NCBI GenBank assembly: GCA_964645755.1
Contig: CAZYBT010000008.1
Span: 1 to 51,501 of the forward strand
Direction of reading: 5' to 3'
Source: an uncultured Rhizobium sp.
GTDB taxonomy: Bacteria > Bacteroidota > Bacteroidia > NS11-12g > UBA955
Length of the DNA: 51,501 nt
Shown: piece by piece, positions 5,586 to 49,346 of the stretch
Layout of the letters: each line of letters starts with the position of its first letter
How positions within the stretch are numbered: position 1 is the first letter of the stretch
Translations under genes and position numbers: made by a program
The notes under the pieces: model-generated
The model's database searches: none
Told to the model about the DNA's origin: nothing
What the model saw: only the letters and a program-made list of their open reading frames with translations

Positions 5586-5623
5586 TTTTAGTACTATGCA
5601 ATACAAAGTACTGTTTTTAGCCA

Positions 5624-5631
5624 TATATTTG
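5624..5631 (+). promoter_or_regulatory. Candidate -7 box (TATATTTG) for the PadR-PspC operon
   Basis: TAnnTTTG match ending 5 nt before ATG 5636. Preceded by two AGTACT palindromes (5590-5595, 5607-5612), which could be an operator or a weak terminator stem for the photolyase gene. Confidence 0.3.
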
Positions 5632-5635
5632 CATC

Positions 5636-5971: not shown

Positions 5972-5982
5972 ATCATTCAACC

Positions 5983-7455
5983 ATGAACAAAATAATCACC
6001 GCCAACATCAATGGTTTTATTTTCCCAATCGATGAACTTGCATACGAAAAACTCAAATCGTATTTGCTCGAATTACATAAAAAAATCAAAGATCCAGAAA
6101 CCATTACCGATATTGAAAATCGCATCGCAGAATTATTTAGCATCCAGATTCAGGAAGGAAAAGTTGCTATTTTAGACGATGATTTGAATGCTGTAATTGC
6201 ACAAATAGGAGAAATTAGCGACATTGAAGAACCTGAAAACGACCATCATACAGAATCCAAATCCAAATCCAATTTCACCTCCATCCCCTCAAAATCCTTT
6301 TTTAGAGATAGAGAAAACAAACAACTATTTGGTGTTTGTAGCGGACTTTCAGCTTATTTCAATTTAGATGTGCGACTGATTCGTATCATTTTCATACTAC
6401 TTATCTGGTTTGGAGTTGGGATTCTCCTGTATTTTGTCATCACGTTGTTCACTCCATATGCAAACTCTGAAACTGAAAAAGCGCAAATGCATGGAGAACC
6501 AATCGATTATCAATCAATCAACAATACAATAAAGAACAATGCAAAAGACACTTTTAACACCTTTAAAAATGAAGTAAAAAACCAACATAACTCAAAGACA
6601 GTCAAACTTTTGGCGACTTTTTTCTTGGTGGCATTGTTGTCTGTAATCATTCCAAGTATTTTTGGTTTGATATTTTCTGCAGGTGTCATTTCTTTGGTAT
6701 TAGAATCTTTCCAAAGGTTTATTCTTGTTGACATTCAAAGCATTGTGCTGCCATTGATGGCAACAAGTTTCATCGTGGTTATTCCAGTTATTCTCATCGT
6801 TTATCGTTTGATTCGTATTGTTTTTGAGGGACAAAAAATGCCAAAAGCCATCAAAATTGTGATCAATTCGATATGGATCCTATCCATTCTTTATATGTTC
6901 TATTTTGCCGTAACCCTTGGTCGAAATTTCAACTCAAGTTATTCTATTACTCGAACTGAAAACATCAAGTCACCTGCAAAAGATTCCATATTAAACATCA
7001 AATCCTCTGAATTTTCAATCGTTAAGAACAACCAAGAATTTGTGGTTGAAGATCCAGATTTGATGGACTTTATGAACAACAAGTTCAGCGAAAATGTGTC
7101 CCTCAAAATTTTTAGAACTTCGGAAAAGCTGCCGTATTTAAAAATCAATCAATTCAGCCGTGGATCCAGAAAAAATGCAATTAACAATGCAACAGGAATT
7201 CACTATCCAGTTACTTTTGAAGGAAATCAATTGATTTTGAGCAATTATTTCACGCTTGGTGAGAACATCCCTTGGCGAATTCAAGAAGTTACAGTTTCCT
7301 TATTTGTGCCTGAGGGTTATACCTTAATTATCGACAAAAGTTGCAGCCCCATTATTCATGAGGTAGAAAACCAAGACTTAAGATTAGATAGCGACGAATC
7401 GGAGTCAGTAAAATTGAAATCGACCAGTAACGGTATCATTTATTTGCATCCATAA
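5983..7455 (+). CDS. PspC domain-containing membrane protein
   Basis: 490 aa. PspC motif LFGVCSGLSAYFNLDVRLIRIIFILLIWFGVGILLYFVI plus further TM segments. Starts 12 nt after the PadR gene, a common PadR-PspC pairing. Confidence 0.8.
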   Translation: MNKIITANINGFIFPIDELAYEKLKSYLLELHKKIKDPETITDIENRIAELFSIQIQEGKVAILDDDLNAVIAQIGEISDIEEPENDHHTESKSKSNFTSIPSKSFFRDRENKQLFGVCSGLSAYFNLDVRLIRIIFILLIWFGVGILLYFVITLFTPYANSETEKAQMHGEPIDYQSINNTIKNNAKDTFNTFKNEVKNQHNSKTVKLLATFFLVALLSVIIPSIFGLIFSAGVISLVLESFQRFILVDIQSIVLPLMATSFIVVIPVILIVYRLIRIVFEGQKMPKAIKIVINSIWILSILYMFYFAVTLGRNFNSSYSITRTENIKSPAKDSILNIKSSEFSIVKNNQEFVVEDPDLMDFMNNKFSENVSLKIFRTSEKLPYLKINQFSRGSRKNAINNATGIHYPVTFEGNQLILSNYFTLGENIPWRIQEVTVSLFVPEGYTLIIDKSCSPIIHEVENQDLRLDSDESESVKLKSTSNGIIYLHP

Positions 7456-7533
7456 AAGAATTTCCCCCAAAAAATTCAAAGCATTTTCTATTGGGTTTGT
7501 CGAATATCTTACGTTAAAATTAAAAATACACTG

Positions 7534-7541
7534 TAAATTTG
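7534..7541 (+). promoter_or_regulatory. Candidate -7 box (TAAATTTG) for pirin paralogue 1
   Basis: TAnnTTTG match 15 nt upstream of ATG 7556. Confidence 0.3.
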
Positions 7542-7555
7542 TTTAAACAAATAAA

Positions 7556-8278
7556 ATGAGCAATTTCGTAATACACAATGCAGAAACCCGTGGGCACGCC
7601 AATCACGGTTGGTTAAATAGCTATCATACTTTTAGTTTTGCCAGTTATTACAATCCAGAACGCATCCATTTTGGTGCACTCAGGGTGTTAAACGACGATA
7701 CGGTTGCTGCAGGTATGGGGTTCGGCAAACATCCTCACGATAATATGGAGATTATTTCAATTCCGTTGGAAGGAGATTTGCAGCACCAAGACAGCATGGG
7801 AAACACAGCTATCATTAAAAATGGCGACATCCAAGTGATGAGCGCCGGAACTGGTATCCAACATAGCGAATTCAATGCAAGCCAAACCAATTTGGTCAAG
7901 TTTTTACAAATTTGGGTCTTCCCGAAAAACAGAAACGTAACCCCTCGTTACGACCAAATGACGCTAGATAAAAAAGATCGACACAATAAATTACAACAAA
8001 TCCTCTCTCCCAACCCAGACGATGCCGGAGTTTGGATACATCAAGATGCTTGGTTTCATTTGGGTAAATTTGATCAAGATTTTCAAACGGACTACCTGAT
8101 TAAAAAACCTGGAAATGGTCTGTATGCGTTTGTTTTAAAAGGAAGTTTTTCTATTGATGGAAAAACACTTAACACCCGAGACGGAATGGGAATCTGGGAT
8201 ATATCTCAGGTTACAATAAAATCAGATTCAGAGGCATCAGAAATTCTACTAATGGAAGTTCCAATGCAACTCAATTAA
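7556..8278 (+). CDS. Pirin family protein (YhhW/quercetinase-like, short form)
   Basis: 240 aa. Cupin metal motif GFGKHPHDNMEIISIPLEGDLQHQDSMGN and MSAGTGIQHSEFN. Confidence 0.85.
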   Translation: MSNFVIHNAETRGHANHGWLNSYHTFSFASYYNPERIHFGALRVLNDDTVAAGMGFGKHPHDNMEIISIPLEGDLQHQDSMGNTAIIKNGDIQVMSAGTGIQHSEFNASQTNLVKFLQIWVFPKNRNVTPRYDQMTLDKKDRHNKLQQILSPNPDDAGVWIHQDAWFHLGKFDQDFQTDYLIKKPGNGLYAFVLKGSFSIDGKTLNTRDGMGIWDISQVTIKSDSEASEILLMEVPMQLN

Positions 8279-8280
8279 AA

Positions 8281-8589
8281 TCAAGGATTTTCAGAGAGCG
8301 TGTCTAAATATCCTAAGCTACCACCTTCCAACCATTTTACATTTTTACCAATTTCTTGTAAGTAGGCTTGGGCTCTTCGAGCTCTGCCTCCTCCTCTACC
8401 GCATGTGGTTACAATCAACATTGCTTCAGGAATTTCAGACAATCTTTTTTCTAAATCGTCTACAGGTATGTTCAAGGCATTTGGAATATGTCCTTCCGAA
8501 TATTCATTCGGTTTTCTTACATCCAAAACCATAACATTGTTTATAGCTTGAATTTCTTTCAATTCATTGATTGTTATTTTATTTTCCAT
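8281..8589 (-). CDS. Rhodanese-like domain protein
   Basis: 102 aa. LDVRKPNEYSEGHIPNALNIP and active-site loop TTCGRGGGRARRA. Overlaps the upstream MFS gene by 11 nt, so likely the same operon. Confidence 0.8.
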   Translation of the reverse strand: MENKITINELKEIQAINNVMVLDVRKPNEYSEGHIPNALNIPVDDLEKRLSEIPEAMLIVTTCGRGGGRARRAQAYLQEIGKNVKWLEGGSLGYLDTLSENP

Positions 8590-9838
8590 CTTCTTTAAAT
8601 CTCGTTTGAATCACAAATGCCGACAGCAAAGTTATTGCAGCAATAGCATAAATTGACGCGGCAACTCCAAATTTATCGGCAATTAAACCTGTAATCACGG
8701 CACCAATTGCATATCCTAAATCTCTCCAAAATCGAAAAACGCCCAAAGAATTGGCCCTATCGGCTGGATGGGTATATTGAGCGATTGTAGCCAAAAATGT
8801 AGGGTAAACCAGGGCTGTACCAATTCCTAACAGTGCACTTAAAACCACCCACACGATATAAATCGGATTTAACGACATACAAAACAGCGTTAAACCTTGT
8901 AAAAACATCCCCCAAAATAACAGTAACTTTTTGGAATATAAATCGGCCAATTTTCCTGTAATGAGTTGGCCTATACCCCAAAACGCCGGATAAACTGCTG
9001 CAATGATGCCAATTTCTTTAATTTGAAATCCCTGATTTGCCAATACCACAGGTAAAAGTCCCCACACCATACCATCGTTCAAATTATTGACCAACCCGGC
9101 TTGAGAAACAGATCCTAAAATTGGATGCTTCCAAGAAGTGTGGTAAAATACATTCTTAAGTCGAGGAATCATCGATTTTTCGGACTCTTTCTGACTGTGT
9201 AAGGTGGTGTCCTTTACAAATAAAATAGTGGTTAAAAGTCCAACAATTGACAAAGCAATACCGATATAAAAAGGGTAAGGTCTAACCCCATAACGTTGTG
9301 CAATGAATGCCGTAAGCATGGCAACAAAAGCCACTGACAAATAACCAGCAAACTCATTCAAGCCCATTGCAAATCCCCGTTGTTTCTCGCCTACCAGATC
9401 AATTTTCATGACCACCGTGCTTGACCAAGCAAGTCCTTGGTGGATTCCAAGAAGCACATTGGTAAACACAACCCATGTCCAAGAAGTTGCATGAATCATT
9501 AAAAATGGAATTGGCAGGGCCAATATCCATCCCAAAATAAGCACATTTTTTCGACCAATTTTTCCGGCAAGTTTTCCAGAAAAATAGTTCGATACAGCTT
9601 TGGCGACACCAAAAACGGTAATAAAGGATAAAATTGCAGCATTTGCCTGAATATGAAATACATCTGAAGCAAAAAGTGGCATGATGCTGCGCTCCATTCC
9701 CACCATTCCACCAACAAAAGCATTCACAAGAACAAGTAGCATGAATTGGGGTAAATTTTCCTTTAGGCCGAGTTTAATCTGATTTTCTTGCATGGACAAA
9801 TCAATTCCACACAAAGTTCCCACTACGCTCTGGCGCAT
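8579..9838 (-). CDS. MFS transporter
   Basis: 419 aa and hydrophobic throughout (~12 TM). MFS loop 2-3 signature SGKLAGKIGRKNV. Confidence 0.8.
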   Translation of the reverse strand: MRQSVVGTLCGIDLSMQENQIKLGLKENLPQFMLLVLVNAFVGGMVGMERSIMPLFASDVFHIQANAAILSFITVFGVAKAVSNYFSGKLAGKIGRKNVLILGWILALPIPFLMIHATSWTWVVFTNVLLGIHQGLAWSSTVVMKIDLVGEKQRGFAMGLNEFAGYLSVAFVAMLTAFIAQRYGVRPYPFYIGIALSIVGLLTTILFVKDTTLHSQKESEKSMIPRLKNVFYHTSWKHPILGSVSQAGLVNNLNDGMVWGLLPVVLANQGFQIKEIGIIAAVYPAFWGIGQLITGKLADLYSKKLLLFWGMFLQGLTLFCMSLNPIYIVWVVLSALLGIGTALVYPTFLATIAQYTHPADRANSLGVFRFWRDLGYAIGAVITGLIADKFGVAASIYAIAAITLLSAFVIQTRFKEDGK

Positions 9839-34509: not shown

Positions 34510-35667
34510 ATGAAAAAACACAATTATCTCTTTACTAGCGAATCTGTTTCTGCGGGACACCCCGACAAAGTTGCCGATCAAATTTCAGATGCAATTCTCG
34601 ATGCCTATCTCCTAGTTGACCCGCATGCAAAAGTGGCATGCGAAACCCTCATCTGCAACAACCAACTGGTCATTGCAGGCGAAATCACGTCCACCTTCAA
34701 GTTCGATGAAATTGCAATTGCCAAACATGTGCTTGAAAAAATTGGGTACAACGACATAAGCGTTGGTTTCGACTGGAAAACAGCCACTTACAACAACCAC
34801 ATCCATGCACAAAGTCCCGAAATTGCCCATTCTGTTTCCGATGGTGGCGTTGGTGATCAAGGCATAATGTTCGGATATGCCTGCAATGAAACACCCGAAT
34901 TGATGCCACTGCCCATTTCACTAGCCCATAAAATTGTAAAATCGCTTCATGTTTTGAGGGACAATGGCGGAATTGCTTGGTTGAGGCCCGATGCAAAATC
35001 TCAAGTCACTGCCAAATACGAAAATGGGAAACCTGTTTCCATCGAAAAAATAGTGGTTTCCACTCAACACTCCGAAGATGTTGACCAACATACCATTCGC
35101 AAAACAATCATTCAAAAAGTTGTAGAACCAATTTTAAAGGATTTAGACATCAATGCTTCCCCAATATATCTGATCAATCCATCTGGAAGTTTTACCATTG
35201 GTGGACCGTTTGGCGATACTGGACTCACTGGCAGAAAAATCATCGTAGATTCTTATGGGGGTAGCGCACCTCACGGTGGCGGTGCCTTTTCAGGGAAAGA
35301 CCCAAGTAAGGTAGACCGAAGTGCCAATTATGCAGCACGCTATATTGCCAAACACTTGGTGGCAGCAGGATTGGTAGATCGATGCACTGTGCAATTGTCT
35401 TATGCCATTGGAGTTGCTGAACCCACCTCTATTTTTATTGATACGGCTGGAACGGAAGTGGTAGACTTGGAGTTATTACACGAAATTGTCCCTCAAATTT
35501 TCCCTGTAAAACCCAATGACATCATCCGAGTATTGAAATTAAAACAGCCTATTTATGCACCAACAGCAAGCTACGGTCATTTTGGCAATGAAAACTACCC
35601 TTGGGAAGTGATTGATTCTGATAAAATTACCGCTTTGAGAAACTATTGTGGGATAGAAAATCCATGA
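34510..35667 (+). CDS. metK: S-adenosylmethionine synthetase
   Basis: 385 aa. Motifs GHPDKVADQISDAILDA, GVGDQGIMFGYA, DAKSQVT and GGGAFSGKDPSKVDRSANY. Confidence 0.97.
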   Translation: MKKHNYLFTSESVSAGHPDKVADQISDAILDAYLLVDPHAKVACETLICNNQLVIAGEITSTFKFDEIAIAKHVLEKIGYNDISVGFDWKTATYNNHIHAQSPEIAHSVSDGGVGDQGIMFGYACNETPELMPLPISLAHKIVKSLHVLRDNGGIAWLRPDAKSQVTAKYENGKPVSIEKIVVSTQHSEDVDQHTIRKTIIQKVVEPILKDLDINASPIYLINPSGSFTIGGPFGDTGLTGRKIIVDSYGGSAPHGGGAFSGKDPSKVDRSANYAARYIAKHLVAAGLVDRCTVQLSYAIGVAEPTSIFIDTAGTEVVDLELLHEIVPQIFPVKPNDIIRVLKLKQPIYAPTASYGHFGNENYPWEVIDSDKITALRNYCGIENP

Positions 35668-38250: not shown

Positions 38251-38382
38251 AGTTGATAAATACACCAAAAAATTATAAACAGTGAGAAGAAAACCTTGAT
38301 TGGCAACCTATGTTTCAGGATTCCGATTAGAAAGAAGTGAGATTGTAAAAAAAGAAGTTTTCAATTGCTTGGTACAATAAAA

Positions 38383-38940
38383 ATGACAACACTAAAAGAT
38401 AACATAATTCAGATTGTCGGCGAGAATCCGGATTTCTTAGACGATGTTTTGGTTCAATTTAAAAAAGTGACCTACTCAAATGATGATTTCATTATGAAAG
38501 AAGGTGAAATTTGTAAATCAGTTTTTTTTGTAGAAACTGGAATGTTGCATGTGACTACTTCTGATAAATTACAAAATGAGATTACTATTGATATCGTGAT
38601 CGATAATCAATGGTTTACAGACATCAATAGCTTCAAAACGGAATCATCGTCAATGCTCAACATCCGTGTAAAAAAAGGTTCAACGATTCATATACTCAGT
38701 AAAGATTCTTTTGATCAATTCATAGTGAAAGTTCCCAAATTTGCTGAAGCATATATGAAAATTATCGAACAAAAATTCTCTGAGTCAATGATGAGAATCA
38801 CATCATTTACAACCATGAACTCCAAGGAGAAAATCGAATGGCTTAGAAAATACAAACCTGAATTCTTTTTAAAATTAACAGACAAGCTCATTGCTTCTTA
38901 TCTGGGTATTTCTCATGAAACTTTTTCCAGACAGAAATAA
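38383..38940 (+). CDS. Crp/Fnr family transcriptional regulator
   Basis: ORF 38365..38940, which starts at TTG. I prefer ATG 38383. cNMP-binding-type barrel (FIMKEGEICKSVFFVETGMLHV). C-terminal HTH IASYLGISHETFSRQK. Confidence 0.7.
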   Translation: MTTLKDNIIQIVGENPDFLDDVLVQFKKVTYSNDDFIMKEGEICKSVFFVETGMLHVTTSDKLQNEITIDIVIDNQWFTDINSFKTESSSMLNIRVKKGSTIHILSKDSFDQFIVKVPKFAEAYMKIIEQKFSESMMRITSFTTMNSKEKIEWLRKYKPEFFLKLTDKLIASYLGISHETFSRQK

Positions 38941-38945
38941 GCTCT

Positions 38946-38969
38946 AAAAATTGACATAAATCAATTTTT
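38946..38969. promoter_or_regulatory. FNR/CRP-type box TTGAC-ATAA-ATCAA inside a perfect 9-bp inverted repeat
   Basis: aaaaattga-cataaa-tcaattttt. The core at 38951-38964 matches 9 of 10 consensus positions of TTGAT-N4-ATCAA. A -7 box (TAGTTTTG) lies at 38987-38994. The box centre (38957.5) is about 41.5 nt upstream of the start that this -7 box implies. Confidence 0.45.
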
Positions 38970-38991
38970 AAAAACACTTCACGGTGTAGTT

Positions 38992-41376
38992 TTGCGAACC
39001 GTGAAATCGCCTATCTATATATTCATATTTGTTGCATTTTTTATTTTTGGTGATGCCAATGCACAACATGCAAATTTTGGGAAATTCTCAGGAAAAATCG
39101 TTGACAATAATAATCGATTACCCATTTCTCATGTAGTAATTTCAATCCTTGGAACTGAAATGAGTGTACAAACTGATTCACTCGGTGAGTTTGTTTTTGA
39201 TTCATTGGAAGTTCGTGTTTATTCAATTATTGCGCAGCATCCAGATTATGTTTCCGAAATATACACAGATGTCCGAATTATCCAAAATAAAACAACATCC
39301 CGAGAAATCTTGTTGAACAGCTCAATTGAGTCCAGCAAATCTGTTGATATTAAAACATTTAAATTCGAAAACAGTCGAAGCACACCCATTTCAACTTACA
39401 ATTTTTCAAGGGAGGAAATCAATTTAAATCCGGGCTCGCAAGGAGATATATTTCGCGCCATTGGAATGTTACCGGGTGTTTCAAGTAGCGGAGGAATATA
39501 TTCCGCAATTTCGGTTAGAGGACAAGGTGTTCGAGACAATGTATACATGGTAGATGATATTCCATTAACCGAAGTTGGACATTTAGAAGGAAATAGTTTT
39601 TTCAACGATCCCAATGGAGGAAGATTTAGCATTTTTGCTCCAAGGGTCATTGATCATGCTCAATTTCAAGGTGGTGGTTTTGGTGCAGATTTCGGCCGAA
39701 GAAGCGCTTCGTCTTTGGGTCTTTTCATCAAAGAAGGCAATGGCAAAAATGCCATCATTGATGGTCAAGTAGATTTATTGGGTATCACTCTGAATTACGA
39801 CGGCCCAATTAAATTTCATAAGAAAACAAATATTTTCTTATCCGCCAGATATCAAAATTTCTATGGGCTGGTGAATTTAATAGGTTTGAAAGATATCGGA
39901 TTGCCCATATACGGAGACCTCATTTTTAAATCTACAACACAGCTTTCACAAAAACACAAACTTTCGTTTTTAGCCATGATTTGTCCTGAAAGTTTTGTGA
40001 GGGACATTGACAATGTTTACGCTGATAAAAAGTTAAACCTTTTGTATTTGCCAAATTTCAAAAGAAATAAGGTTGTATTAGGATTGAATTTAATGTCCCT
40101 CATGAGCAAAAAAAGTTACATAAAACATGTTCTATATTACACTTCGTTTACCTCGGATATGATTGTTGGGAAAGCATATCCGGAAACCGACAGTGCAGGA
40201 AACTTAATGAATCGCGAGATATTTTACAGATCGAACATTCAAACTCAAAATTATAACGAAAACAAATGGGGAATTCGTTCCATATACACCAAAAACTTCA
40301 GCAATAGCAGCAAACTCATTTTGGGATTAGAAGCAGACTTATTGGAATTAAAAAATGACCGTATTTTTCATCAAAACGACACAAATTATGTTTACCGAAA
40401 GACGGATGTGATAAACCAAAATGAACAATATCAAGTCATTTATCCGTCGATGGTAAATGCAACATTCCGTGGTTGGAGCAAGAATGTATCTGGGTTTGCA
40501 AATTATTCCTTTATAATTGGACAAAAACTTTCATTAAATGCAAGTCTAAGATATGATTTCACTGGTTTTTCGGAGCAACATTCAATTTCACCGAGACTGA
40601 GCGGTAGTTATTTTTTTGGTGAAAAATCATCAATCAATTGGGGGTATGGCCTATATTTCCAAGATCCTGTTTATTCAGATTTTGCGGATCAACCCAAAGG
40701 AGAAACCTTAAAAATGGAAAAGGTTACACAGTATATTTTGGGATTTAGGCGAAATATTCGTGCAGACTTAAAATTCACCATTGAAATTTGGTACAAAGAT
40801 TTCCAAAATATGGTGACGACCCCCATTACGGGAACCGTCTTAAAAAACAACAATGGAACAGGAACGGGCAAAGGACTTGATATTAGCTTGACCAAACGCT
40901 TGTTGAAAAAGTTTCATGGGCAGTTGAGCTATTCATGGATGGAAACCATGCGTAACGATCACGATGAAAATGGAACATATCAATTTGCATTTAGTCAACC
41001 CCATCAATTTAATTTGATGCTCAGTTACAAAGCCAGCGAAAAATTCACATTTTCCATGAGATACCGCTATGCCACTGGCAAACCTAAAGACAATTTTTTG
41101 ATTCATGAAAATGTATTAGCTGGTAGTCAGTCCATGCGATATTCTAAAGAAATCATTGGTAAAAATGAATTGCGGTTACCAGATTTTAACAGTTTGGATT
41201 TAAGGGCAAATTATCATTTTAAATTTAAATCTTCGGCAATCACCATTTTTATGGATATTGTAAATGTATCAAACAAACAGATACCAAATAATGAAAGCTT
41301 TAATTATTTGACTGGTCAAAACTATTACGACGGTTTGGCAATTTTCCCTACTGGCGGAATGAAATTTGAATTTTAA
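38992..41376 (+). CDS. TonB-dependent receptor with N-terminal carboxypeptidase-regulatory-like domain
   Basis: 794 aa with a signal peptide. CarbopepD_reg-like GKIVDNNNRLPISHVVISILGTEMSVQTDSLGEFVF. Plug motif GSQGDIFRAIGMLPGVSS. C-terminal beta-barrel ending GGMKFEF. The start may be TTG 38992 or GTG 39001. Confidence 0.85.
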   Translation: MRTVKSPIYIFIFVAFFIFGDANAQHANFGKFSGKIVDNNNRLPISHVVISILGTEMSVQTDSLGEFVFDSLEVRVYSIIAQHPDYVSEIYTDVRIIQNKTTSREILLNSSIESSKSVDIKTFKFENSRSTPISTYNFSREEINLNPGSQGDIFRAIGMLPGVSSSGGIYSAISVRGQGVRDNVYMVDDIPLTEVGHLEGNSFFNDPNGGRFSIFAPRVIDHAQFQGGGFGADFGRRSASSLGLFIKEGNGKNAIIDGQVDLLGITLNYDGPIKFHKKTNIFLSARYQNFYGLVNLIGLKDIGLPIYGDLIFKSTTQLSQKHKLSFLAMICPESFVRDIDNVYADKKLNLLYLPNFKRNKVVLGLNLMSLMSKKSYIKHVLYYTSFTSDMIVGKAYPETDSAGNLMNREIFYRSNIQTQNYNENKWGIRSIYTKNFSNSSKLILGLEADLLELKNDRIFHQNDTNYVYRKTDVINQNEQYQVIYPSMVNATFRGWSKNVSGFANYSFIIGQKLSLNASLRYDFTGFSEQHSISPRLSGSYFFGEKSSINWGYGLYFQDPVYSDFADQPKGETLKMEKVTQYILGFRRNIRADLKFTIEIWYKDFQNMVTTPITGTVLKNNNGTGTGKGLDISLTKRLLKKFHGQLSYSWMETMRNDHDENGTYQFAFSQPHQFNLMLSYKASEKFTFSMRYRYATGKPKDNFLIHENVLAGSQSMRYSKEIIGKNELRLPDFNSLDLRANYHFKFKSSAITIFMDIVNVSNKQIPNNESFNYLTGQNYYDGLAIFPTGGMKFEF

Positions 41377-41436
41377 TTTTTTTTCTACGCCAATAACTAA
41401 ATAAATTGTTTAGATTCGTTCACAACAACATCAATC

Positions 41437-42234: not shown

Positions 42235-42504
42235 TTGATATCACAATGATAAACAATAATCTTAATATTGCTGCATTTTTATATCGAATCCAGATGTTTT
42301 TATTGGAAAATATCTTAAAACTGTACATTCAATGCGGTTTGATAAATTCAAATAAAAGAGTTCTGCAATTGAAACCATTCAATTTTGTTCCGTTGGCGAA
42401 TTCTATTTTAAATGAGACTTTTTTGTTGAATTTTACAGTCATTTTTTGATGGAATTGGCATATTTATTTGCAATAAAAGCAAATTTCAACTTATATTGCC
42501 GTTT

Positions 42505-43017
42505 ATGAAATTAAAAATATTCATCATTTCAATGCTTGCGCTACCGTTATTTTTTGCATGCAATGGCTCCAACAAATCTACTGAAATCACTGTAATTGAT
42601 ACGTTTACATTCGAAGGACCGCTGTATGAAGGCTCTAACCCTGCTCAATTGGTTTATCCTGTAGACTTAAAGGCCTTATTGGGAGATAAATATCACGAAG
42701 GTGTAAAAATTACCGACGCTACACTCTCAGCAGCTACTGTTTCTTCTGTTGATACAAATTCCTTGGATGGAATTTCATCGATGGTATTAAGCGTGGCATC
42801 AGACAATCCCGAACTTAAAATGTTATCGTTGGGGGTTATCAATCCTGTGGATCCAAAATCCAAAACAGCTTCACTCAAGCCTTCAGCGGAGTCTAACGCA
42901 GGCAAGTATTTCCAAGAAAAACAATATTACATTGTTTTAGACATTGGACTCAACAAAGACATTGAGGAGTCGATTCAACTCAAAGGAGAAATTAAATTCA
43001 CATTAAAACACAATTAA
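42505..43017 (+). CDS. Hypothetical lipoprotein
   Basis: ORF 42496..43017, which starts at TTG. I prefer ATG 42505 (MKLKIFIISMLALPLFFACNG, a lipobox). First gene of a tightly spaced three-gene plus-strand cluster. Confidence 0.55.
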   Translation: MKLKIFIISMLALPLFFACNGSNKSTEITVIDTFTFEGPLYEGSNPAQLVYPVDLKALLGDKYHEGVKITDATLSAATVSSVDTNSLDGISSMVLSVASDNPELKMLSLGVINPVDPKSKTASLKPSAESNAGKYFQEKQYYIVLDIGLNKDIEESIQLKGEIKFTLKHN

Positions 43018-43022
43018 CAAAT

Positions 43023-43487
43023 ATGAAAAAATTATTACTGATTGCAATTGCTGCATTCTTCGGCACCATTTTGAGTTCATTTGTTTACCAAGACAACGCT
43101 GGAGATAGACTTATTGGCGTTTGGGAGCCATCTAATGGAAGAGCACGCGTAAAAGTTGAAAAAATTGGTGCAAAATACTATGGAAAAATCGTTTGGCTTA
43201 AAGAATCGAACGATCCTGTTACAAAGCAACCAAAAACAGATAAAAACAACCCAGACCCAAGTCTTCAAAATGTACCGTTAAAAGGATACAGAATGTTGAA
43301 GGATTTTGTTTACTCAGGTAAAGACGAATGGAATGAAGGCACCATTTACGACCCTTTGAATGGCAGCACTTACAGCTGCACCATCAAAATGACCGATAAA
43401 AACACCCTCGAAATTCGCGGATATATTGGTGTTTCGGCACTGGGTAGAACCGATATTTGGAAGCGATTAGAAGTTAAGAAAAAATAA
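43023..43487 (+). CDS. DUF2147 domain-containing protein
   Basis: 154 aa with a signal peptide. GVWEPSNGRARVKVEKIGAKYYGKIVWLKE and GTIYDPLNGSTYSCTIKMTDKNTLEIRGYIGVSALGRTDIWKR match my recollection of DUF2147. Confidence 0.75.
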   Translation: MKKLLLIAIAAFFGTILSSFVYQDNAGDRLIGVWEPSNGRARVKVEKIGAKYYGKIVWLKESNDPVTKQPKTDKNNPDPSLQNVPLKGYRMLKDFVYSGKDEWNEGTIYDPLNGSTYSCTIKMTDKNTLEIRGYIGVSALGRTDIWKRLEVKKK

Positions 43488-43490
43488 CCC

Positions 43491-44627
43491 ATGACGCATT
43501 CTACATTTTTAAAGCGAGCTACACTTGTAGCTTGCTTTTCTTTTGCTTTGTGCTCGCAGTTAACTGCACAAACCGATACCGCTATTGGGCCTAAATCAAC
43601 CGAGGAAGAAGATTTTTCCATGTATGATGAAGTTGGGTTCGCGGATCAAGGGGCTAAACGATATTGCTCTCCTAAAATTGAGGGACTTAGCCCGGCAAAA
43701 TTGGTGAGCCTCGGATTCGACATCCAAGGTCCGTATAAAATGACGCTGGATACGTTTAACAACAATATCAATCAAGGTTCCCCAGAGAACAGCGGATCGG
43801 CAACCACCAGTGGTATGCGTTTTGCCTGCAATATCCCTGTAGTTTCAAAAACCTCTTTGGTTTGGCAGCTAGGCGCAAACTATTGGGAAAGCGGTTACAG
43901 CTTTAACAACAACGACGTTATCACAAAACCTGTTGTGTACGTAGAAAACCCAATGCTTCAATCACTTAGAAACAACGGTTTGCGTACATTGGGCATTAAC
44001 ACTACCATATTTAAGCCATTGAACGACAAGAATTTTTTATTGTTCCAGGGGTCTTCAGACTTGAGTGGCGATTATGACTGGAATTTGATGCCAACCAAGT
44101 ATTTGAAATACTCGGCAGCTCTAATTTACGGAAAACGTCCCTCAGAAAGAAAACAATGGGGATTTGGATTGTCGCGTACCTATAGAGCTGGAGAGTTGAA
44201 TTATATTCCAATTTTCTTATTCAACTACACCGACGCTGCCAATAAATGGGGTTCTGAAATCTTGTTTCCTGCCAGAGCACACGTGAGAAGAACCATCAAT
44301 TCTAGGAATATGTTATTTGCTGGGTATGAATTGGAGGGACAATCGTACAGGCTCTATCGAATGGAGAGCATTAGAAACCAAGATTTAGAAATCAGACGGG
44401 CCGAGATTCGTTTAAGATTGGTGTATGAATTTTCGTTGAAGGACTTCCTGTGGATGTCGGTTCAAGCTGGCTACAGAATCAATTATCGTTACGATGTTGA
44501 TCGTTTGAGCAATGGAAATGAAATATTACGAGCTTTCGGATTGCTTTCAAAAGAGCCTTATGTAATGCAAAATAAGTTGACCAACCCATTGTATTTCAAT
44601 GTGAGCATCAATTTGGTAAGTCCGTAA
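43491..44627 (+). CDS. Hypothetical secreted protein (possible outer-membrane beta-barrel)
   Basis: 378 aa with a signal peptide (LVACFSFALCSQLTAQ). Alternating-hydrophobicity strands with many aromatic residues. Starts 4 nt after the DUF2147 gene. Confidence 0.5.
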   Translation: MTHSTFLKRATLVACFSFALCSQLTAQTDTAIGPKSTEEEDFSMYDEVGFADQGAKRYCSPKIEGLSPAKLVSLGFDIQGPYKMTLDTFNNNINQGSPENSGSATTSGMRFACNIPVVSKTSLVWQLGANYWESGYSFNNNDVITKPVVYVENPMLQSLRNNGLRTLGINTTIFKPLNDKNFLLFQGSSDLSGDYDWNLMPTKYLKYSAALIYGKRPSERKQWGFGLSRTYRAGELNYIPIFLFNYTDAANKWGSEILFPARAHVRRTINSRNMLFAGYELEGQSYRLYRMESIRNQDLEIRRAEIRLRLVYEFSLKDFLWMSVQAGYRINYRYDVDRLSNGNEILRAFGLLSKEPYVMQNKLTNPLYFNVSINLVSP

Positions 44628-44783
44628 AAGGGATACCTCATAGATTTTACGTCACAACCACTGCGTATTCTCTGGAAAGCCGAAGGAATTTTAGAAAATT
44701 TATTTTAAGACAAGGTAACGGTGCTATCCTCATATTCAAAGGGCTAAATGAATCAGAAGTGATTTCTTACATGCAGACGCTTC

Positions 44784-44846
44784 CATTGTACCAACTCCAA
44801 AAAAACATCGAGTACTATACCCTCACAAAACAATTTTAAGGAATTG
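44784..44846 (+). repeat. 63-bp direct repeat, copy A (left flank of the antitoxin/partner cassette)
   Basis: cattgtaccaactccaaaaaaacatcgagtactataccctcacaaaacaattttaaggaattg. Identical to 46024-46086 except for one position (44839 a versus 46079 g). Confidence 0.95.
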
Positions 44847-44878
44847 AGGGATATTGGTTTCCAAAAATCCCTCAATTC
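44841..44878. terminator. Perfect 12-bp stem hairpin between convergent genes (possible bidirectional terminator)
   Basis: gaattgagggat (44841-52) and atccctcaattc (44867-78) with a 14-nt loop. Lies 21 nt beyond the stop of the 151-aa gene. There is no clean U-tract on the minus strand. On the plus strand a T-run follows about 20 nt after the stem. Confidence 0.4.
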
Positions 44879-44898
44879 ACATCTTATTCAATATTTTT

Positions 44899-45354
44899 TT
44901 ACTTACTTAATATTTGTAATTGCTTTCGATATTTCCATTTTACAGATTTAGAATTTTGAAAGCACGTAATTAATTCATTAAAAATTTCGAGTTTCATTTT
45001 GCCCCAAATTTCGAAATCACTGCCTTCATTAGGATAAATTTCATTCATCATGTCTACAGAATAATCATCTATTTGATGACCGTATAGATGTGTTTTAAAA
45101 TCAAATTTTTTACCACATTCTGTTACCATTTCATTTTCGGAAATTACAAAACAGTTCAAATTAATATCAGGAATATCAATGCATCCAATTTTAGTTAAAC
45201 TATCTTGGGGTATTGTATCTTTTCGGGTTGGCAAGGAAGCCAAAATAGTTTTGTTATCTGATAGATTTAATACAAGAAAATATTTCGGTTTAGCAGTATT
45301 CCCATTTTTGAAATAAAATGGATCAAAACGGATTATGTTCCTGATATCCAACAT
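44899..45354 (-). CDS. Unrecognised 151-aa protein; candidate toxin partner of the Panacea-type antitoxin
   Basis: Starts 2 nt after the stop of the upstream antitoxin-like gene. The N-terminal RFDPFYF..KPKYFLVLN...ASLPTRKD pattern is faintly reminiscent of the MazF/PemK barrel (DFDP...RPAVVLS...VPCTT). That resemblance is by eye only. Confidence 0.45.
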   Translation of the reverse strand: MLDIRNIIRFDPFYFKNGNTAKPKYFLVLNLSDNKTILASLPTRKDTIPQDSLTKIGCIDIPDINLNCFVISENEMVTECGKKFDFKTHLYGHQIDDYSVDMMNEIYPNEGSDFEIWGKMKLEIFNELITCFQNSKSVKWKYRKQLQILSK

Positions 45355-45356
45355 AA

Positions 45357-45932
45357 TCAGTGAGATTCAATGTAATCAGAATAAATTTTTAATTTTCGTT
45401 CATCATGGGCAATAATCATACTCATATCTATCAGATATTCAGTATTGTTGATCGATTCATTTTCCAACAATTCCAAAACAGAATTTTCTTTGGCAGTATT
45501 GAACCATGGAGAATTTACACGATGAGTGTATCCAACCAATTCTTTTGCAGTTCTATTGCCATACTTCTCCACAACATAGTCCATTAACTCAATTTCGTTT
45601 TCGGAAAATTCATCTTCACAAAAAGTTATCTTAGAGACAATATAACTTTCTTTTTTATCTGAATCAACTGAAATAAATTTATCCAACAATGTAATCTCTG
45701 AAGATAATTCAACAAACAATTCCTCAGAAACTGGACCAAATTTCCAAACTTTATACTTTAAATTCAACAATGGAATACCACTTTTTTTGATAGATATCTC
45801 ATCCAAAATGTAAAGTAACTTTAATAATTTGGTTTTTGAAAGATATTCAATCTTCTCAGCCAAGTAAACAATAGTATAACCAATTTTCTCAATTTGGTCA
45901 TGATTATATTTTACATACGGTACTGAGCTCAT
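45357..45932 (-). CDS. Panacea (DUF4065/SocA-like) domain antitoxin candidate
   Basis: 191 aa. SKTKLLKLLYILDEISIKKSGIPLLNLKYKVWKFGPVSEELF matches the DUF4065 core pattern (KLqKLLYyad......G.pl....f.AW.yGPV....y). Confidence 0.65.
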   Translation of the reverse strand: MSSVPYVKYNHDQIEKIGYTIVYLAEKIEYLSKTKLLKLLYILDEISIKKSGIPLLNLKYKVWKFGPVSEELFVELSSEITLLDKFISVDSDKKESYIVSKITFCEDEFSENEIELMDYVVEKYGNRTAKELVGYTHRVNSPWFNTAKENSVLELLENESINNTEYLIDMSMIIAHDERKLKIYSDYIESH

Positions 45933-45945
45933 GGTGAATAATATA

Positions 45946-45953
45946 CAAATTTA
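45946..45953 (-). promoter_or_regulatory. Candidate -7 box (TAAATTTG on the minus strand) for the antitoxin/partner operon
   Basis: Minus-strand reading is ...ggtcaTTGgtattattcaattgaaagctgTAAATTTGtatattattcaccATG. A TTG lies 21 nt upstream of the box, and the box ends 13 nt before ATG 45932. Confidence 0.4.
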
Positions 45954-46023
45954 CAGCTTTCAATTGAATAATACCAATGACCATTTTCATTACATGACAT
46001 GACTATTTGTAAAATCCCTAAAA

Positions 46024-46086
46024 CATTGTACCAACTCCAAAAAAACATCGAGTACTATACCCTCACAAAACAATTTTAGGGAATTG
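46024..46086 (+). repeat. 63-bp direct repeat, copy B (right flank of the cassette)
   Basis: 62/63 identical to 44784-44846. The two copies are 1240 bp apart, start to start. Confidence 0.95.
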
Positions 46087-46284
46087 TTAATTTTTCCTAA
46101 AATTCCGACGCGTTTATCCACTGTCAAAACCCATCAACATGGGCTTTAATTTATTTACTGGTTTATTCTCTTCGAGTATCGAAATTGGGTATATTTTGAA
46201 GATCCGATATTAGAATTTTGACAAACTTAGATGAAGCTAATTTCTGAGTAATTTTAACAATCACTTTATGTGCTCATTAAACAT

Positions 46285-46353
46285 ACTTTACATATTTTAA
46301 GCGTTTCACTTTACATATTTTAAGCGTTTCACTTTACATATTTTAAGCGTTTT
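46285..46353. repeat. Three tandem copies of a 23-bp unit (ACTTTACATATTTTAAGCGTTTC)
   Basis: Copies at 46285-46307, 46308-46330 and 46331-46353 (the last base of copy 3 is T, not C). Copy 3 runs directly into the left terminal inverted repeat of the IS3-family element. Confidence 0.9.
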
Positions 46354-46414: not shown

Positions 46415-47281
46415 TTAAGCAGCATTTTTGTTTAAAGATTTATGATAAGCGTCATTTGGTTTCATTCCAATACTTTGATGTTTTTTCTGATGATAATACT
46501 CGATATAGGTCTGAACTCCTTCAAATAGTTCAAGACCTGTATCGCAAGGGTTCAGATAAATATGGTTGTATTTGATGGTTTTCCAGAACCTTTCAATCCA
46601 AATATTATCTGTGGCTCTGCCTTTTCCATCCATCGATATTTTGAATTCTTGACCTTCCAAATAGTTCGTCCAAGTAGGACTGGTGTACTGTGATCCTTGG
46701 TCTGAATTGATGATTTCAGGAACACCATGTTTTGCAATTGCATTTTCCAATACATCCATACACCATTGCTTGCTCATCGAGTTACTGATGCCCCAGCCCA
46801 TGATTTTTCTGCTGTAAACATCAATGATGGCGGTCATGTACATAAATCCTTTAGACATGGGGATGTATGTGATATCGGTGCACCACACTTGGTTGGCTCG
46901 CTCAATTTTTAAGCCACGCAACAAATAGGGTTTGATGTATGCTTTGAGAGCACCTTTAGTAAGATTTTTTCTTCGATATATAGTTTCATGCCCCATCAGT
47001 TTAAACATCCGTCTAATACGCTTGGGACCTACTGGGTAACCATGTTCTTGAAGCCATTCATCCATTGATAAAACGCCCTATGTTGGATGAGATGTAAGAT
47101 GTTGATCCATCAGAGACATCATCTTGAGATTCTCAGGTTTTTCAGGAATAGGCGCATAGTAAAGTGAACTAGGAGGAACACATAACAATTCACATTGTCG
47201 GCGCAATGAAATGGCACTTCGCTTTAATTTTATGGCTTCCATTCGTTCTCGGGTATCCCCAATTTCTTGGCACTTTTTTTT
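46415..47281 (-). pseudogene. IS3-family transposase OrfB (DDE/rve integrase core), interrupted by an in-frame amber codon
   Basis: The -1 frame from UUA-AAA-AAA-A reads KKKCQEIGDTRERMEAIKLKRSAISLRRQCELLCVPPSSLYYAP...MDQHLTSHPT-TAG-GVLSMDEWLQEHGYPVGPKRIRRMFKLMG. The TAG is at 47080..47078, where relatives normally have HP.YG. The downstream 216-aa ORF carries DDE residues (WCTDITYI, INSDQGSQY, IERFWKTIK). Confidence 0.75.
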
Positions 47282-47547
47282 AAAAAGTCTAGCTCCACTT
47301 TGAGCTTGCCAATTTGGGCATAAAGCTTCTCTACTGGCACCTCTGGCTCACTGTTTTCAGTTTCCTTTACGTTGGAAAAAGCAGCAGCCATGTTGGTTAT
47401 TAACTCTGATTTCCATTTAGAAATTGTTACGGCGTTAACCTCGAATTTTTGTGACAACTGTGCTAATGTTAGTTGTTCTTTCGCCGCCTCATGGGCAACT
47501 TTTGCCTTGAATTCAGGTGTGAATTTGCGTCGGGTTTGTTTGGTCAT
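47230..47547 (-). CDS. IS3-family transposase OrfA (HTH)
   Basis: 105 aa. RRKFTPEFKAKVAHEAAKEQLTLAQLSQKFEVNAVTISKWK, a leucine-zipper-like tail, and an A8 slippery run (47274-47281) near the 3' end. Confidence 0.85.
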   Translation of the reverse strand: MTKQTRRKFTPEFKAKVAHEAAKEQLTLAQLSQKFEVNAVTISKWKSELITNMAAAFSNVKETENSEPEVPVEKLYAQIGKLKVELDFLKKSAKKLGIPENEWKP

Positions 47548-47618: not shown

Positions 47619-48110
47619 TCACACCTCACATTTACCCACCCCATTTCCCAAAAACTCATATACCTTCATGATTTGGGGCTTTACAACGTCATAAATGTAG
47701 TACATGCATGAATTGAACTCAAACCTTTTGTTGTTAATCTCAATAAAATAGCCAGTATCTGTAAAAGAAATTGGCAAATGCCGATTGAACATAACATGAT
47801 TTCCTAAACTGCCATAAATGCCATAAAAATGGATGTGATTTTCAAGTTGAGGCACATTTTTGTTCATCGCAATGTAGTGATAGTAAGTGGTGTCGGTGTG
47901 TTTGTTGAATAATTCTACAAATTCAAAAAACAAGTCTTCATCGTGTTCATTTATATCAGTGTAGTATTGAACAAGTTCATCATTTTCAATAACATAGCAA
48001 TATACTTTTCCTTGGGCGCCCATGGCACCCAATTCCCCGTATTCGGCATACACGATTTTTTCTAAGGGAAGATTTTCCAGCAACTCTCGGGTGATTGGTT
48101 TCTTTTTCAT
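47619..48110 (-). CDS. Hypothetical 163-aa protein (second gene of the orphan two-gene operon)
   Basis: Uninterrupted ORF. Starts 7 nt after the stop of the 409-aa gene. Its stop codon (47621..47619) lies 1-5 nt from the IS3 right end. No family recognised. Confidence 0.5.
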   Translation of the reverse strand: MKKKPITRELLENLPLEKIVYAEYGELGAMGAQGKVYCYVIENDELVQYYTDINEHDEDLFFEFVELFNKHTDTTYYHYIAMNKNVPQLENHIHFYGIYGSLGNHVMFNRHLPISFTDTGYFIEINNKRFEFNSCMYYIYDVVKPQIMKVYEFLGNGVGKCEV

Positions 48111-48116
48111 CTGATT

Positions 48117-49346
48117 TTAAATCAATCCTTTCAGCATTTCTGCATTTTTCTTTACTTTGGCAATGTGCAACCAAGTTTTTGCCAAATCTTCGTGCCAATA
48201 TTTCTTCATTAATTTTGCCTTCGCAGCATCTGTTAATCGCGATTCAGCGATAGCCCAAAGCATGTATTTAGCTTTCACCAAATCAATGTTTGATTCTAGT
48301 AATTTTCGTGCGGCTTCAAAGTCTGGGAAAAACACACGACCCACTTTTTCTGTTTTTATTGGAACAGGATATAATCGACGCGAATGCGGTAAAAAGCAGT
48401 AATTCAAATGAAAACCGCAGAAATCCGACTTTTGTTGATTCCCATACTTTTCCGAAAAACTCCTGCATCTTTTCAAAGAATATTCCTCCTCCTCTTCCTC
48501 TGGACTCATTTTCCGGTAACCGCGATTTTTAAGAATTCCATCCTTAGAATATTCAAAATATGGAACCTTATTGAAATCATCTAATAAATCTGTCTGATCA
48601 TCAGACTCCCAAATACTATCCAATAATTTTTGCTGATTATAGGCATCAATAATATTGTCGATATGCGCTTGATCCATCATATTCAAACGGTCGCAGTCCA
48701 TCAAAATTTGCTCATTTGTCAATTCAAAATCTTGATTCCAATCTATCAAATGGGCGGTGTAACGGGCTCTTTGTGCCGTAACGAAATCCAATTGAGCGTG
48801 TTGTTCAACCCATTTCGCAATATTTTCATGAGGGACAGTTGTCGTTTCAACAAGTGGTCGAACGTATTCATTTTCTATAGCTTGCGCCAACACCCAATCC
48901 CACTGTTCATGATCTAATTTAACTTTGGTTAGAAAATTAACATAAAACCAGTACACACCTTTGCTATTCTTTTCATTTACAACAAGATGCACCTGATCCG
49001 TGGTAATCCGTTGAAATATTTGAAAAATCCCATTTTTCACTGCTTGTGAAGGCTTAGCCTTTAATTCAGTTTCGAAAATTCTACTAAACCGAAAATTCGG
49101 GACATTGTCAATTATACAATTGATGGTAATCTTGAGCATTCCATGTCTATCGATTCTTTTAGGAACATCAAAGCAGTCCAAATTCAATTGAATCAAATCG
49201 AGCATTACCCTTTCGTTGTATTGATAATCAAGGAGATCATCTCTATACGAATAGTAATCCTTCAGCGTTTTAATCCTAAATTTCGGCACGGGCCTAGCCA
49301 TCTTTAAATATTCTTTCCGAAAGGTTTTTTGCAACAAGGGATCCAT
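48117..49346 (-). CDS. Hypothetical 409-aa protein (first gene of the orphan two-gene operon)
   Basis: Long uninterrupted ORF in AT-rich DNA. Cytoplasmic-looking, with an acidic run (PEEEEEEY). No catalytic motif recognised by eye. Confidence 0.55.
   Translation of the reverse strand: MDPLLQKTFRKEYLKMARPVPKFRIKTLKDYYSYRDDLLDYQYNERVMLDLIQLNLDCFDVPKRIDRHGMLKITINCIIDNVPNFRFSRIFETELKAKPSQAVKNGIFQIFQRITTDQVHLVVNEKNSKGVYWFYVNFLTKVKLDHEQWDWVLAQAIENEYVRPLVETTTVPHENIAKWVEQHAQLDFVTAQRARYTAHLIDWNQDFELTNEQILMDCDRLNMMDQAHIDNIIDAYNQQKLLDSIWESDDQTDLLDDFNKVPYFEYSKDGILKNRGYRKMSPEEEEEEYSLKRCRSFSEKYGNQQKSDFCGFHLNYCFLPHSRRLYPVPIKTEKVGRVFFPDFEAARKLLESNIDLVKAKYMLWAIAESRLTDAAKAKLMKKYWHEDLAKTWLHIAKVKKNAEMLKGLI

Follow-up and report, generated by a model that had tools for sequence, protein, structure and literature searches.

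How does a solitary toxin-antitoxin (TA) gene pair come to lie between two almost identical 63-bp direct repeats, with no recombinase gene beside it? This question is raised by a 51,501-nucleotide stretch of contig CAZYBT010000008.1 (assembly GCA_964645755.1, positions 1 to 51,501, forward strand), referred to here as the window, which comes from an uncultured bacterium of the Bacteroidota. The window carries a gene for a 191-aa Panacea-type antitoxin, PanA, followed by a gene for a 151-aa putative toxin, PanT, and a reading made from the sequence alone had proposed that this pair moved as a cassette. The data showed that close relatives have the same site without the pair, so that the insertion can be defined to the base.

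The two 63-bp repeats agree at 62 of 63 positions, with A at 44839 against G at 46079 as the sole mismatch, and their starts are 1240 bp apart. Exactly two open reading frames (ORFs) lie between them, both on the minus strand and separated by a gap of 2 nt. The sequence-only reading had described this bracketed unit, together with a TAnnTTTG box in front of the first gene and a perfect 12-bp hairpin behind the second, and all of these features were found again where it had placed them (Table 1). When up to 3 mismatches were allowed, the 63-mer was present in two copies in the 51.5-kb window and in 0 copies in 100 dinucleotide-preserving shuffles, and blastn with a word size of 7 found no third, diverged copy in the window. 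The GC content of the inserted DNA was 28.5%, in comparison with 36.6% for the whole window.

The earlier reading was right about the repeats but had missed that they are coding sequence on the plus strand, namely the 3' end of a truncated gene resembling muconolactone isomerase (MIase). The 63-mer holds the last 17 codons of this MIase-like gene (LYQLQKNIEY[H/Y]TLTKQF), its stop codon, and 7 further nucleotides. In the window the left copy is continuous with a relic of the gene, the translation of which, after a break of frame, ends in ...ILRQGNGAILIFKGLNESEVISYMQTLPLYQLQKNIEYYTLTKQF before the stop codon, and positions 44673-44846 are 96% identical at the nucleotide level to the corresponding DNA of the relatives.

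These relatives were found in two ways. A gapped-pattern scan of metagenomes returned contigs with a single 63-mer at the orthologous site, L065 and L066 only (loci of this analysis are given L numbers), and exact-protein look-ups added the empty-site contigs L067 to L071. The seven contigs represent six distinct ones (L065 and L071 are the same JGI record), and they are 96-97% identical to the window in the shared segments that flank the repeat and 90% identical in another segment. All of them have an intact 87-aa MIase-like gene on the plus strand that ends with the 63-mer, which is present in a single copy and without a cassette. The 87-aa homologue gave a weak match to Pfam MIase (PF02426), and its relatives are named muconolactone isomerase.

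The empty-site contigs join position 44846 straight to 46087. On the left their 63-mer is flanked by the gene body that adjoins the left repeat in the window, and on the right by TTAATTTT, which adjoins the right repeat. Set against the empty site, the window is longer by 1,240 bp, of which 1,177 bp are new DNA and 63 bp are the second copy of the repeat, and zero target bases were lost. The one-base difference between the repeats falls on the third base of the stop codon, which is TAA in the left copy; the right copy and all the empty sites have TAG. L065 to L071 thus represent the empty site, and a discrete unit has entered the 3' end of the MIase-like gene by a clean insertion. The locus shows what is seen with site-specific integrative elements: direct repeats, one of which is a gene 3' end, and a single-copy empty site. 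The proposal that the module had moved as a cassette, with the repeats as duplicated target or att-like sequence, and that empty sites should be sought in relatives, was therefore borne out. No duplicated MIase 3' end was found in the other lineages represented by L072 to L080.

The same comparison decides about a further possibility, namely that the 63-mer belongs to a generic intergenic repeat dispersed through the genome, and that the module merely lies between, or was captured by, copies of it. The repeats around the module at L044, L015, and other loci do look like genome-wide repetitive extragenic palindromes or satellites. However, the window has just two copies of the 63-mer in 51.5 kb, and the metagenome-wide pattern scan returned the orthologous site only. 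Because a syntenic gene has the 63-mer as its coding 3' end, and the relatives have exactly one copy of the 63-mer in the orthologous place, this explanation is refuted for practical purposes and we regard it as extremely improbable.

We then consider what the unit encodes. The 191-aa protein had been said to carry the DUF4065/Panacea core, and a profile search gave a match to PF13274 SocA_Panacea (DUF4065) above the gathering threshold (E 4.8e-19, 69.8 bits, cut-off 25.7), in which residues 36-143 aligned with profile positions 1-112 of 113. The SocA equivalog NF047745 was matched in part (45.5 bits, cut-off 190). By its profile matches the protein is a Panacea/SocA-like antitoxin. In a scan of one genome per species, a PanA homologue lay directly upstream of a homologue of the toxin at 52 of 52 Bacteroidota loci, and also on one viral contig, and the identities of PanA and PanT co-varied across the 52 loci.

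For the 151-aa partner, at least 343 homologues are present across the Bacteroidota; they are about 146 aa long and have many invariant residues, and the best 120 listed were 59-78% identical to the partner. Many other homologues of PanT also lie on contigs of ~1.1-1.3 kb. No match to the 151-aa protein was found in Pfam, NCBIfam, or PADLOC. PemK_toxin (PF02452) was matched neither by the window protein nor by any of the 28 family members searched, a search with the family profile against PDB sequences found no MazF, and hhalign against the MazF proteins of B. subtilis and E. coli (sequences entered by hand) gave a probability of 0.2%. The structure gave another picture. An AlphaFold2 (AF2) model built on 28 homologues had a mean predicted local distance difference test score (pLDDT) of 78 and a predicted TM-score (pTM) of 0.77, and the top 35 matches of this model in a Foldseek search of the PDB were all MazF-family toxins (MazF, YdcE, MoxT). 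These matches had a probability of ~1.0, E-values of 2e-3 to 4e-2, target-normalised TM-scores (TMt) of 0.49-0.62, and a root-mean-square deviation of 5-9 Å; Kid was at rank 37, and CcdB also stood lower than the MazF-family toxins. The model supports an SH3-like barrel of the CcdB/MazF superfamily, with a moderate superposition that speaks for the fold and not for the function. As the sequence-level tests for MazF all failed, the relation to MazF holds at the level of the fold only. Extra C-terminal helices are added to the MazF/PemK-like fold in the model, and in the family alignment residues K22, K24, T43, and R44 are invariant within the MazF-like motifs KPKYFxVL and ASLPTRKD.

Four cysteines, at residues 58, 68, 80, and 131, are also invariant in the toxin family, and the motif TxCGKxFxFxTxLYGHQ (residues 78-94) gave weak matches to C2H2 zinc fingers. 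A metal site grafted on the MazF-like barrel is possible from these residues. To our knowledge, classical MazF proteins have nothing comparable to this four-cysteine, zinc-finger-like motif.

PanA antitoxins pair with many toxins, including EndoA/PemK/MazF-like ones that were seen only by HHpred, and these EndoA/PemK/MazF-like PanT toxins inhibit translation, MazF-like PanT toxins having been validated (Kurata et al., 2022, PNAS, PMC8832971). Cluster T8 of that catalogue, a putative toxin cluster derived by HHpred and with the antitoxin gene first, lists Psychroflexus tropicus DSM 15496, Aequorivita lipolytica, and Winogradskyella sediminis DSM 28134, with gaps of 2 nt in P. tropicus and 1 nt in A. 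lipolytica (PMC8832971). The three listed organisms correspond to loci L014, L015, and L027 of this analysis. The PanT family of the window is most likely this T8, MazF-like cluster, an assignment based on common genomes and gene spacing and not on accession sequences. Because the same genomes are listed in T8, the 151-aa partner is not a new class of Panacea toxin. The sequence-only reading had presented it as a candidate new toxin with a faint MazF-like pattern; the likeness to MazF/PemK was recovered by AF2 and Foldseek as a fold, but the novelty was not upheld. By analogy with characterized relatives, PanT would presumably be a translation-inhibiting endoribonuclease restrained by direct binding of PanA, and the probable function of the module would be a PanA-neutralised growth arrest by a MazF-fold toxin, which could serve the stability of the locus, phage defence, or both.

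How the unit reached its site is less certain. We hold with moderate confidence that it is a non-autonomous PanA-PanT cassette, which was integrated as a circle at the 63-mer by a trans-acting enzyme. In such a scheme a circular cassette with one 63-mer would enter the cell and recombine with the chromosomal 63-mer in a Campbell-type event, which would give attL and attR. The recombinase would be supplied in trans, because the window encodes none, whether between the repeats or outside them. The 63-bp repeats would permit precise excision, and the module would persist through addiction, defence, or both, in a rearrangement hotspot. The predicted sequence of the circle junction is …AAAATCCCTAAAA + 63-mer + AGGGATATTGG…. 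The reconstructed attP junction folds well (z = -4.3) and the empty attB does not fold; the attP fold results from inverted copies of the target's TTTTAGGGAATTG, one at each end of the insert, namely AAATCCCTAAAA at 46012-46023 and ATCCCTCAATTC at 44867-44878. A perfect 7-6-7 inverted repeat, AACAATT-TTAGGG-AATTGTT, surrounds the stop codon of the target. Both the attP fold and this inverted repeat would suit a tyrosine recombinase, as a lead rather than a result.

Several observations weigh against this scheme. No recombinase was found in or near the unit by Pfam searches of the ORFs between 38 and 51.5 kb or by tblastn of the whole window, and tblastn of the window with IntI1 (entered by hand) and with the recombinases of L033 and L078, described below, found none. 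Between the repeats there are only the two TA genes, and the element has no integrase or excisionase of its own. No circular form was observed. The Logan contigs L003 (SRR29492079) and L004 (SRR10036018), each 1,245 bp long and equal to window positions 44809-46053, are ambiguous in this respect: they start and end k-1 = 30 nt inside a shared 55-bp exact repeat, and we rejected them as a circular form, as this is the unitig expected between repeat copies in a de Bruijn graph with k=31. The contigs show that the repeat-cassette-repeat structure, or a circle, is present in other samples. In addition, both repeat copies carry a single-nucleotide polymorphism of the window lineage (TACTAT), which is missing in the empty sites. 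It follows that attP would have come from the same lineage, and the observation equally fits in-situ duplication or gene conversion. With respect to the toxin, the MazF signal is absent at the sequence and profile level (Pfam, profile against PDB, hhalign), and the one tested relative, the T8 protein WP_073354223.1 of Flavobacterium xanthum, carries the label MazF and was recorded as "not toxic" in E. coli (PMC8832971).

The shared polymorphism leads to the alternative of a long target duplication in situ, in which 63-nt staggered nicks or replicative template switching would be followed by gap repair. A duplication of this kind would agree with the clean insertion without loss of target bases, with two copies that both have the window-lineage allele and differ by one transition, and with the short imperfect inverted repeat of 9 nt at the ends of the insert (AGGGATATT / AGGGATTTT); Cas1-type integrases, which duplicate a whole repeat, offer a likeness. 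However, we know of no bacterial transposase or integrase that makes a 63-bp duplication, the unit encodes no transposase, and elsewhere in the family the module is flanked by repeats of an array rather than by target duplications. The nearby copy of an insertion sequence (IS) of the IS3 family is 330 bp off and its orfB is interrupted, and IS3 elements make duplications of 3-5 bp. We consider in-situ duplication quite improbable. A DDE transposon or IS as the carrier was rejected on the 63-bp duplication, the terminal inverted repeat of only 9 imperfect nucleotides, the lack of an internal transposase, and the separate and degraded state of the adjacent IS3 copy.

Another explanation takes the present unit as the remainder of something larger. 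A genomic island, integrative and conjugative element (ICE), or prophage with an integrase could have used the 3' end of the MIase-like gene as its target, with 63 bp of identity between attP and attB, and later deletions would have trimmed it to attL-TA-attR, like a cis-mobilizable element (CIME). Identities of tens of bp between att sites at gene 3' ends are typical of tyrosine-integrase elements, TA modules resist loss, and the locus is a hotspot of deletion and replacement, with two replacements in comparison with L067, a microhomology deletion beside the right repeat, and the IS3 copy. Yet the genes are only 91 nt from the repeat on the promoter side and 52 nt on the hairpin side, so that the deletions must have stopped just short of both att sites. 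In addition, there is zero pseudogene debris between the repeats, and homologous modules elsewhere move as units of the same size (~1.2 kb). We regard a trimmed larger element as unlikely.

The behaviour of the family in other genomes brings in integrons. In L015, L025, L028, L044, and L045 the homologous module lies between long direct repeats, the sequences of which are unrelated. In L045 (Winogradskyella psychrotolerans, 1-8849), repeat units of ~138 nt form an array in which they are spaced 580-1230 bp apart. The GTT-box (R') of one repeat is matched by an exact complement of 8-10 nt in the 5' box (R'', ending in AAC) of the next repeat in 9 of 9 cases, with boxes such as TGGTAAC/GTTACCA, TGCCAAC/GTTGGCA, and GTACAAC/GTTGTAC, and the inner stem of the repeat shows compensatory changes at 6 of 13 pairs. 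Because complementarity between R'' and the preceding R' is the signature of integron cassettes, we take the L045 arrays as integron-type, cut between G and TT. A covariance model derived from these sites detected 22 sites in 20 kb in L082 (Winogradskyella CP058981.1, 3,778,637-3,799,083; 1-20447) and further arrays in L013/L084, L027, L025, and L023. Large unidirectional cassette arrays were seen in L045, L013/L084, L082, L025, and L027, and their cassettes include ParE, AbiJ, and PanA-PanT. At six loci (L013, L023, L024, L033, L035, and L045) the start of the TA cassette is complementary over 10 nt to the box after the toxin stop codon. The R''/R' pairs at these loci are TACTGCCAAC/GTTGGCAGTA or TACCGCTAAC/GTTAGCGGTA, and they lie 75-140 nt 5' of panA and 4-10 nt past the toxin stop.

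In L033 (4182-6444) and L085 (8131-10447) a co-oriented Xer/IntI-like tyrosine recombinase is followed directly by the TA pair as its first cassette. At the recombinase-cassette junction of L085, ATAACAAG is followed directly by TTGGCAGTAAT. The recombinases of L085, L033, and L078 are 395, 374, and 279 aa long, respectively, and each is encoded immediately 5' of a G|TT junction; those of L033 and L078 are 44% identical. All three pass NF040815 (XerA/integron integrase) and fall below TIGR02249, for which the match is split near profile position 180; from their sequences they may lack the IntI-specific insertion and could escape IntegronFinder. In L078 (7500-10540) the recombinase abuts a cassette with genes for an HxlR regulator, an old yellow enzyme (OYE) oxidoreductase, and a MIase-like protein, and this cassette is closed by an attC whose inner stem is 18 bp long. 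The recombinases upstream in L034, a housekeeping XerD, and in L021, which is IS91-associated, were rejected as cassette integrases. Few complete integrons have been reported in Bacteroidota (PMC9024848), and a review lists Bacteroidota among the integron-bearing phyla (PMC8618304).

Other vehicles were also considered. No match was obtained by tblastn in PLSDB or INPHARED for carriage on plasmids or phages, and in IMG/VR there was one contig with a 48%-identical pair and with no integrase and no repeats nearby. The closest TA homologues, in L005, L057, and L062 (68-78% amino acid identity), have unrelated flanks, and the element could not be traced at another site. A conserved basic ORF of ~43 aa lies on the opposite strand just 3' of the TA pair in L057 (8472-8603), L062 (2273-2404), and L005, and is missing from the window.

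Is the unit in the window itself an integron-type cassette? Its 63-mers would then be attC-like, cut between G and TTGGTA in gene orientation, the unit would have been inserted by an integron-like tyrosine recombinase such as handles this TA family in Flavobacteriaceae, and the locus would be a two-site cluster of attC sites lacking an integron integrase (CALIN). The same TA family forms true cassettes at the six loci with 10-nt complementarity, the unit of 1,240 bp is close in size to the L045 cassette of ~1,236 bp, and the MIase-like gene of L078 is itself in such a cassette, beside the same recombinase family. A GTTGGTA is present 102 nt upstream of panA in the window, and the upstream copy of the repeat begins with ..TTAAC. 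However, the unit's own downstream copy has CTC in place of the AAC of R'', is not complementary to the start of the cassette, and has no TACCAAC, with AACCAAT 12 nt away only; the identity of the repeats also runs 11 nt past the putative cut. Folding was no better than that of shuffles, either for the 63-mer (z = -0.4 and +0.7) or for the empty site (z = -1.5 and +0.1). The attC covariance model of Winogradskyella, which is lineage-specific, yielded 31 + 52 matches at related loci but, with E up to 1, no match in the window. The window has two repeat copies within 4 kb and no integrase, and the site in the relatives is ordinary coding sequence in one copy, with no array. As the attC tests (R''/R', folding, and model) failed, the site is single-copy coding sequence, and no recombinase was found, we do not class the unit as an integron cassette, and this origin appears to us just as unlikely as a trimmed larger element.

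A broader version is a little less likely still. The 63-bp site could be the working site of a Bacteroidota-specific integron-like system with a Xer-like recombinase, or of an undescribed integrase that makes 63-bp duplications. Within an integron-like system PanA-PanT would be the characteristic first cassette, which stabilises the platform, and the recombinase would be co-oriented with the cassettes. If this were true, the insertion of a cassette in a coding 3' end would be a route by which genes gain attC-like ends and become cassettes. Integration of a circle by an enzyme acting in trans remains the account that we prefer.

Further features lie within the unit and at its edges. The box TAAATTTG is inferred to act as the promoter of the unit, from its sequence and position. 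The hairpin has a perfect 12-bp stem and a 14-nt loop that contains an inner 4-bp stem (z = -3.8 in a context of 131 nt). A strict, simple terminator scan did not call it, because the loop is 14 nt long; the hairpin, which follows the 151-aa gene, is probably a terminator. The sequence-only reading had seen the hairpin but not that its first arm takes in the last 6 nt of the left repeat, so that it spans the junction between repeat and insert. An Rfam search of the repeat at E up to 1 returned one meaningless sub-threshold match to a microRNA only. An outer 23-nt inverted repeat (44676-44698 / 46093-46115) was judged to be due to chance; it belongs to a remnant of the neighbouring gene.

The surroundings of the unit are strongly rearranged. 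In comparison with L067, which is 90-97% identical, the window has other genes at 38303-41423 (a cyclic nucleotide monophosphate (cNMP)-binding regulator and a TonB-dependent receptor) and at 42260-44673 (a 173-aa protein, a DUF2147 protein, and a 378-aa protein), and through the second replacement an HxlR gene was lost and the MIase-like gene was truncated at its 5' end. On the other side, a 220-aa gene has lost all but its 3' remnant, for which L067 positions 3584-3708 and window positions 46090-46214 are 97.6% identical. Because two replacements and the loss of the 220-aa gene surround it, the TA cassette lies in a hypervariable islet. The IS3 copy farther downstream is probably inactive, judging from its interrupted orfB. 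Adjacent genes for 163-aa and 409-aa proteins on the minus strand (47619-49346) lie upstream of the IS3 copy and had no match in Pfam, NCBIfam, or PADLOC. The metK gene of the window (34510-35667) bears on its origin: apart from one metagenome protein with 96% identity, MetK homologues were at most 80% identical, so that the window comes from an uncultured lineage of the Bacteroidota rather than from a described Flavobacterium. In another lineage (L074, 10264-13150; L075; L076), the DNA directly 3' of the orthologous HxlR-OYE-MIase-like genes holds strain-variable TA and defence genes (DUF2683 with YoeB/ParE, Gp49-HI1420, and Mrr) without flanking repeats, and no attC-like repeats were found between the TA modules 3' of the MIase-like gene in L074 and L075. 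The 3' side of the HxlR-OYE-MIase-like cluster seems to be a recurrent landing place for TA and defence modules.

Table 1. Coordinates of the PanA-PanT unit, its target gene, and the adjacent features in the window
Feature	Position	Strand	Remarks
Target-gene relic (MIase-like)	44673..44839	+	5'-truncated; frameshift near 44700-44708; TAA stop at 44837-44839
Left 63-bp repeat (attL-like)	44784..44846		Contiguous with the MIase-like gene body; TAA stop
Hairpin 3' of the 151-aa gene	44841..44878	-	Arms 44841-44852 / 44867-44878
Inserted DNA	44847..46023	-	1,177 bp; promoter box, both genes, and hairpin; missing in relatives
151-aa putative toxin gene (PanT)	44899..45354	-	
191-aa PanA antitoxin gene	45357..45932	-	Panacea / SocA-like domain, residues 36-143
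Predicted -7 promoter box, TAAATTTG	45946..45953	-	TAnnTTTG, Bacteroidota-type; 13 nt 5' of the PanA ATG
Right 63-bp repeat (attR-like)	46024..46086		Orphan copy of the gene 3' end; TAG stop; followed by TTAATTTT
Downstream flank, 3' remnant of a 220-aa gene	46087..46214	+	Rest lost by deletion at an ATTTT microhomology; outside the cassette
Tandem repeat of the 23-mer ACTTTACATATTTTAAGCGTTTC	46285-46353		Three (near-)perfect copies; beside the IS3 copy
IS3-family copy	46415-47547		orfA HTH_Tnp_1, orfB rve; orfB split near 47065-47078 by a stop/frameshift

TA modules are widely assumed to be mobile, and before-and-after evidence for a solitary TA pair that moved without a recombinase gene is uncommon. 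Here an occupied site can be compared with an empty one, the boundaries are exact, and 63 bp are duplicated, so that the locus offers a concrete substrate with which to find the enzyme that moves mini-cassettes in Bacteroidota. The gain for TA biology is small, because the family is already catalogued and its PanT is a putative toxin. For integron researchers, the arrays of the Flavobacteriaceae may be of more interest than the window locus and may deserve their own study, as the PanA/MazF-fold family is a recurrent cassette in these integron-type arrays and is twice the first cassette.

In comparison with known systems, the locus combines known kinds: a catalogued PanA/MazF-like TA pair on a small repeat-flanked insertion. 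It shares with the PanA-PanT pairs of Kurata et al. the Panacea antitoxin, the antitoxin-first order, and a gap of 0-2 nt, and in both the window and T8 the partner is predicted to be MazF-like by structure-based methods only; the window member differs from T8 in its origin from an uncultured Bacteroidota lineage and in a 5-aa C-terminal extension. Unlike classical MazF, the family of the window adds four invariant cysteines and C-terminal helices. With SocAB, the type VI TA system of Caulobacter, it has the SocA/Panacea domain of the antitoxin in common, but the window antitoxin is far below the cut-off of the SocA equivalog, its partner is unrelated to SocB, and nothing in the module points to behaviour as a ClpXP adaptor.

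As a mobile unit, it differs from integrative elements and CIMEs in having 1.18 kb between the repeats without integrase or transfer genes, in a target that is a small accessory gene and not a tRNA or housekeeping gene, and in an excision that is predicted only. It resembles those that use gene 3' ends in its attL/attR-type repeats, which share tens of bp and of which one completes the target gene, and in the empty site of its relatives. In contrast to integron cassettes, its repeats consist of the coding 3' end of a resident gene and have no attC-like fold, one of them lacks the AAC of R'', and neither an integrase nor an array is present. With the TA cassettes of integrons, such as the Vibrio superintegron, and with CALINs, it shares a small promoter-bearing two-gene TA unit of ~1.24 kb between near-identical direct repeats, and homologues of its TA pair are true cassettes in Flavobacteriaceae arrays, where they stand first beside the recombinase.

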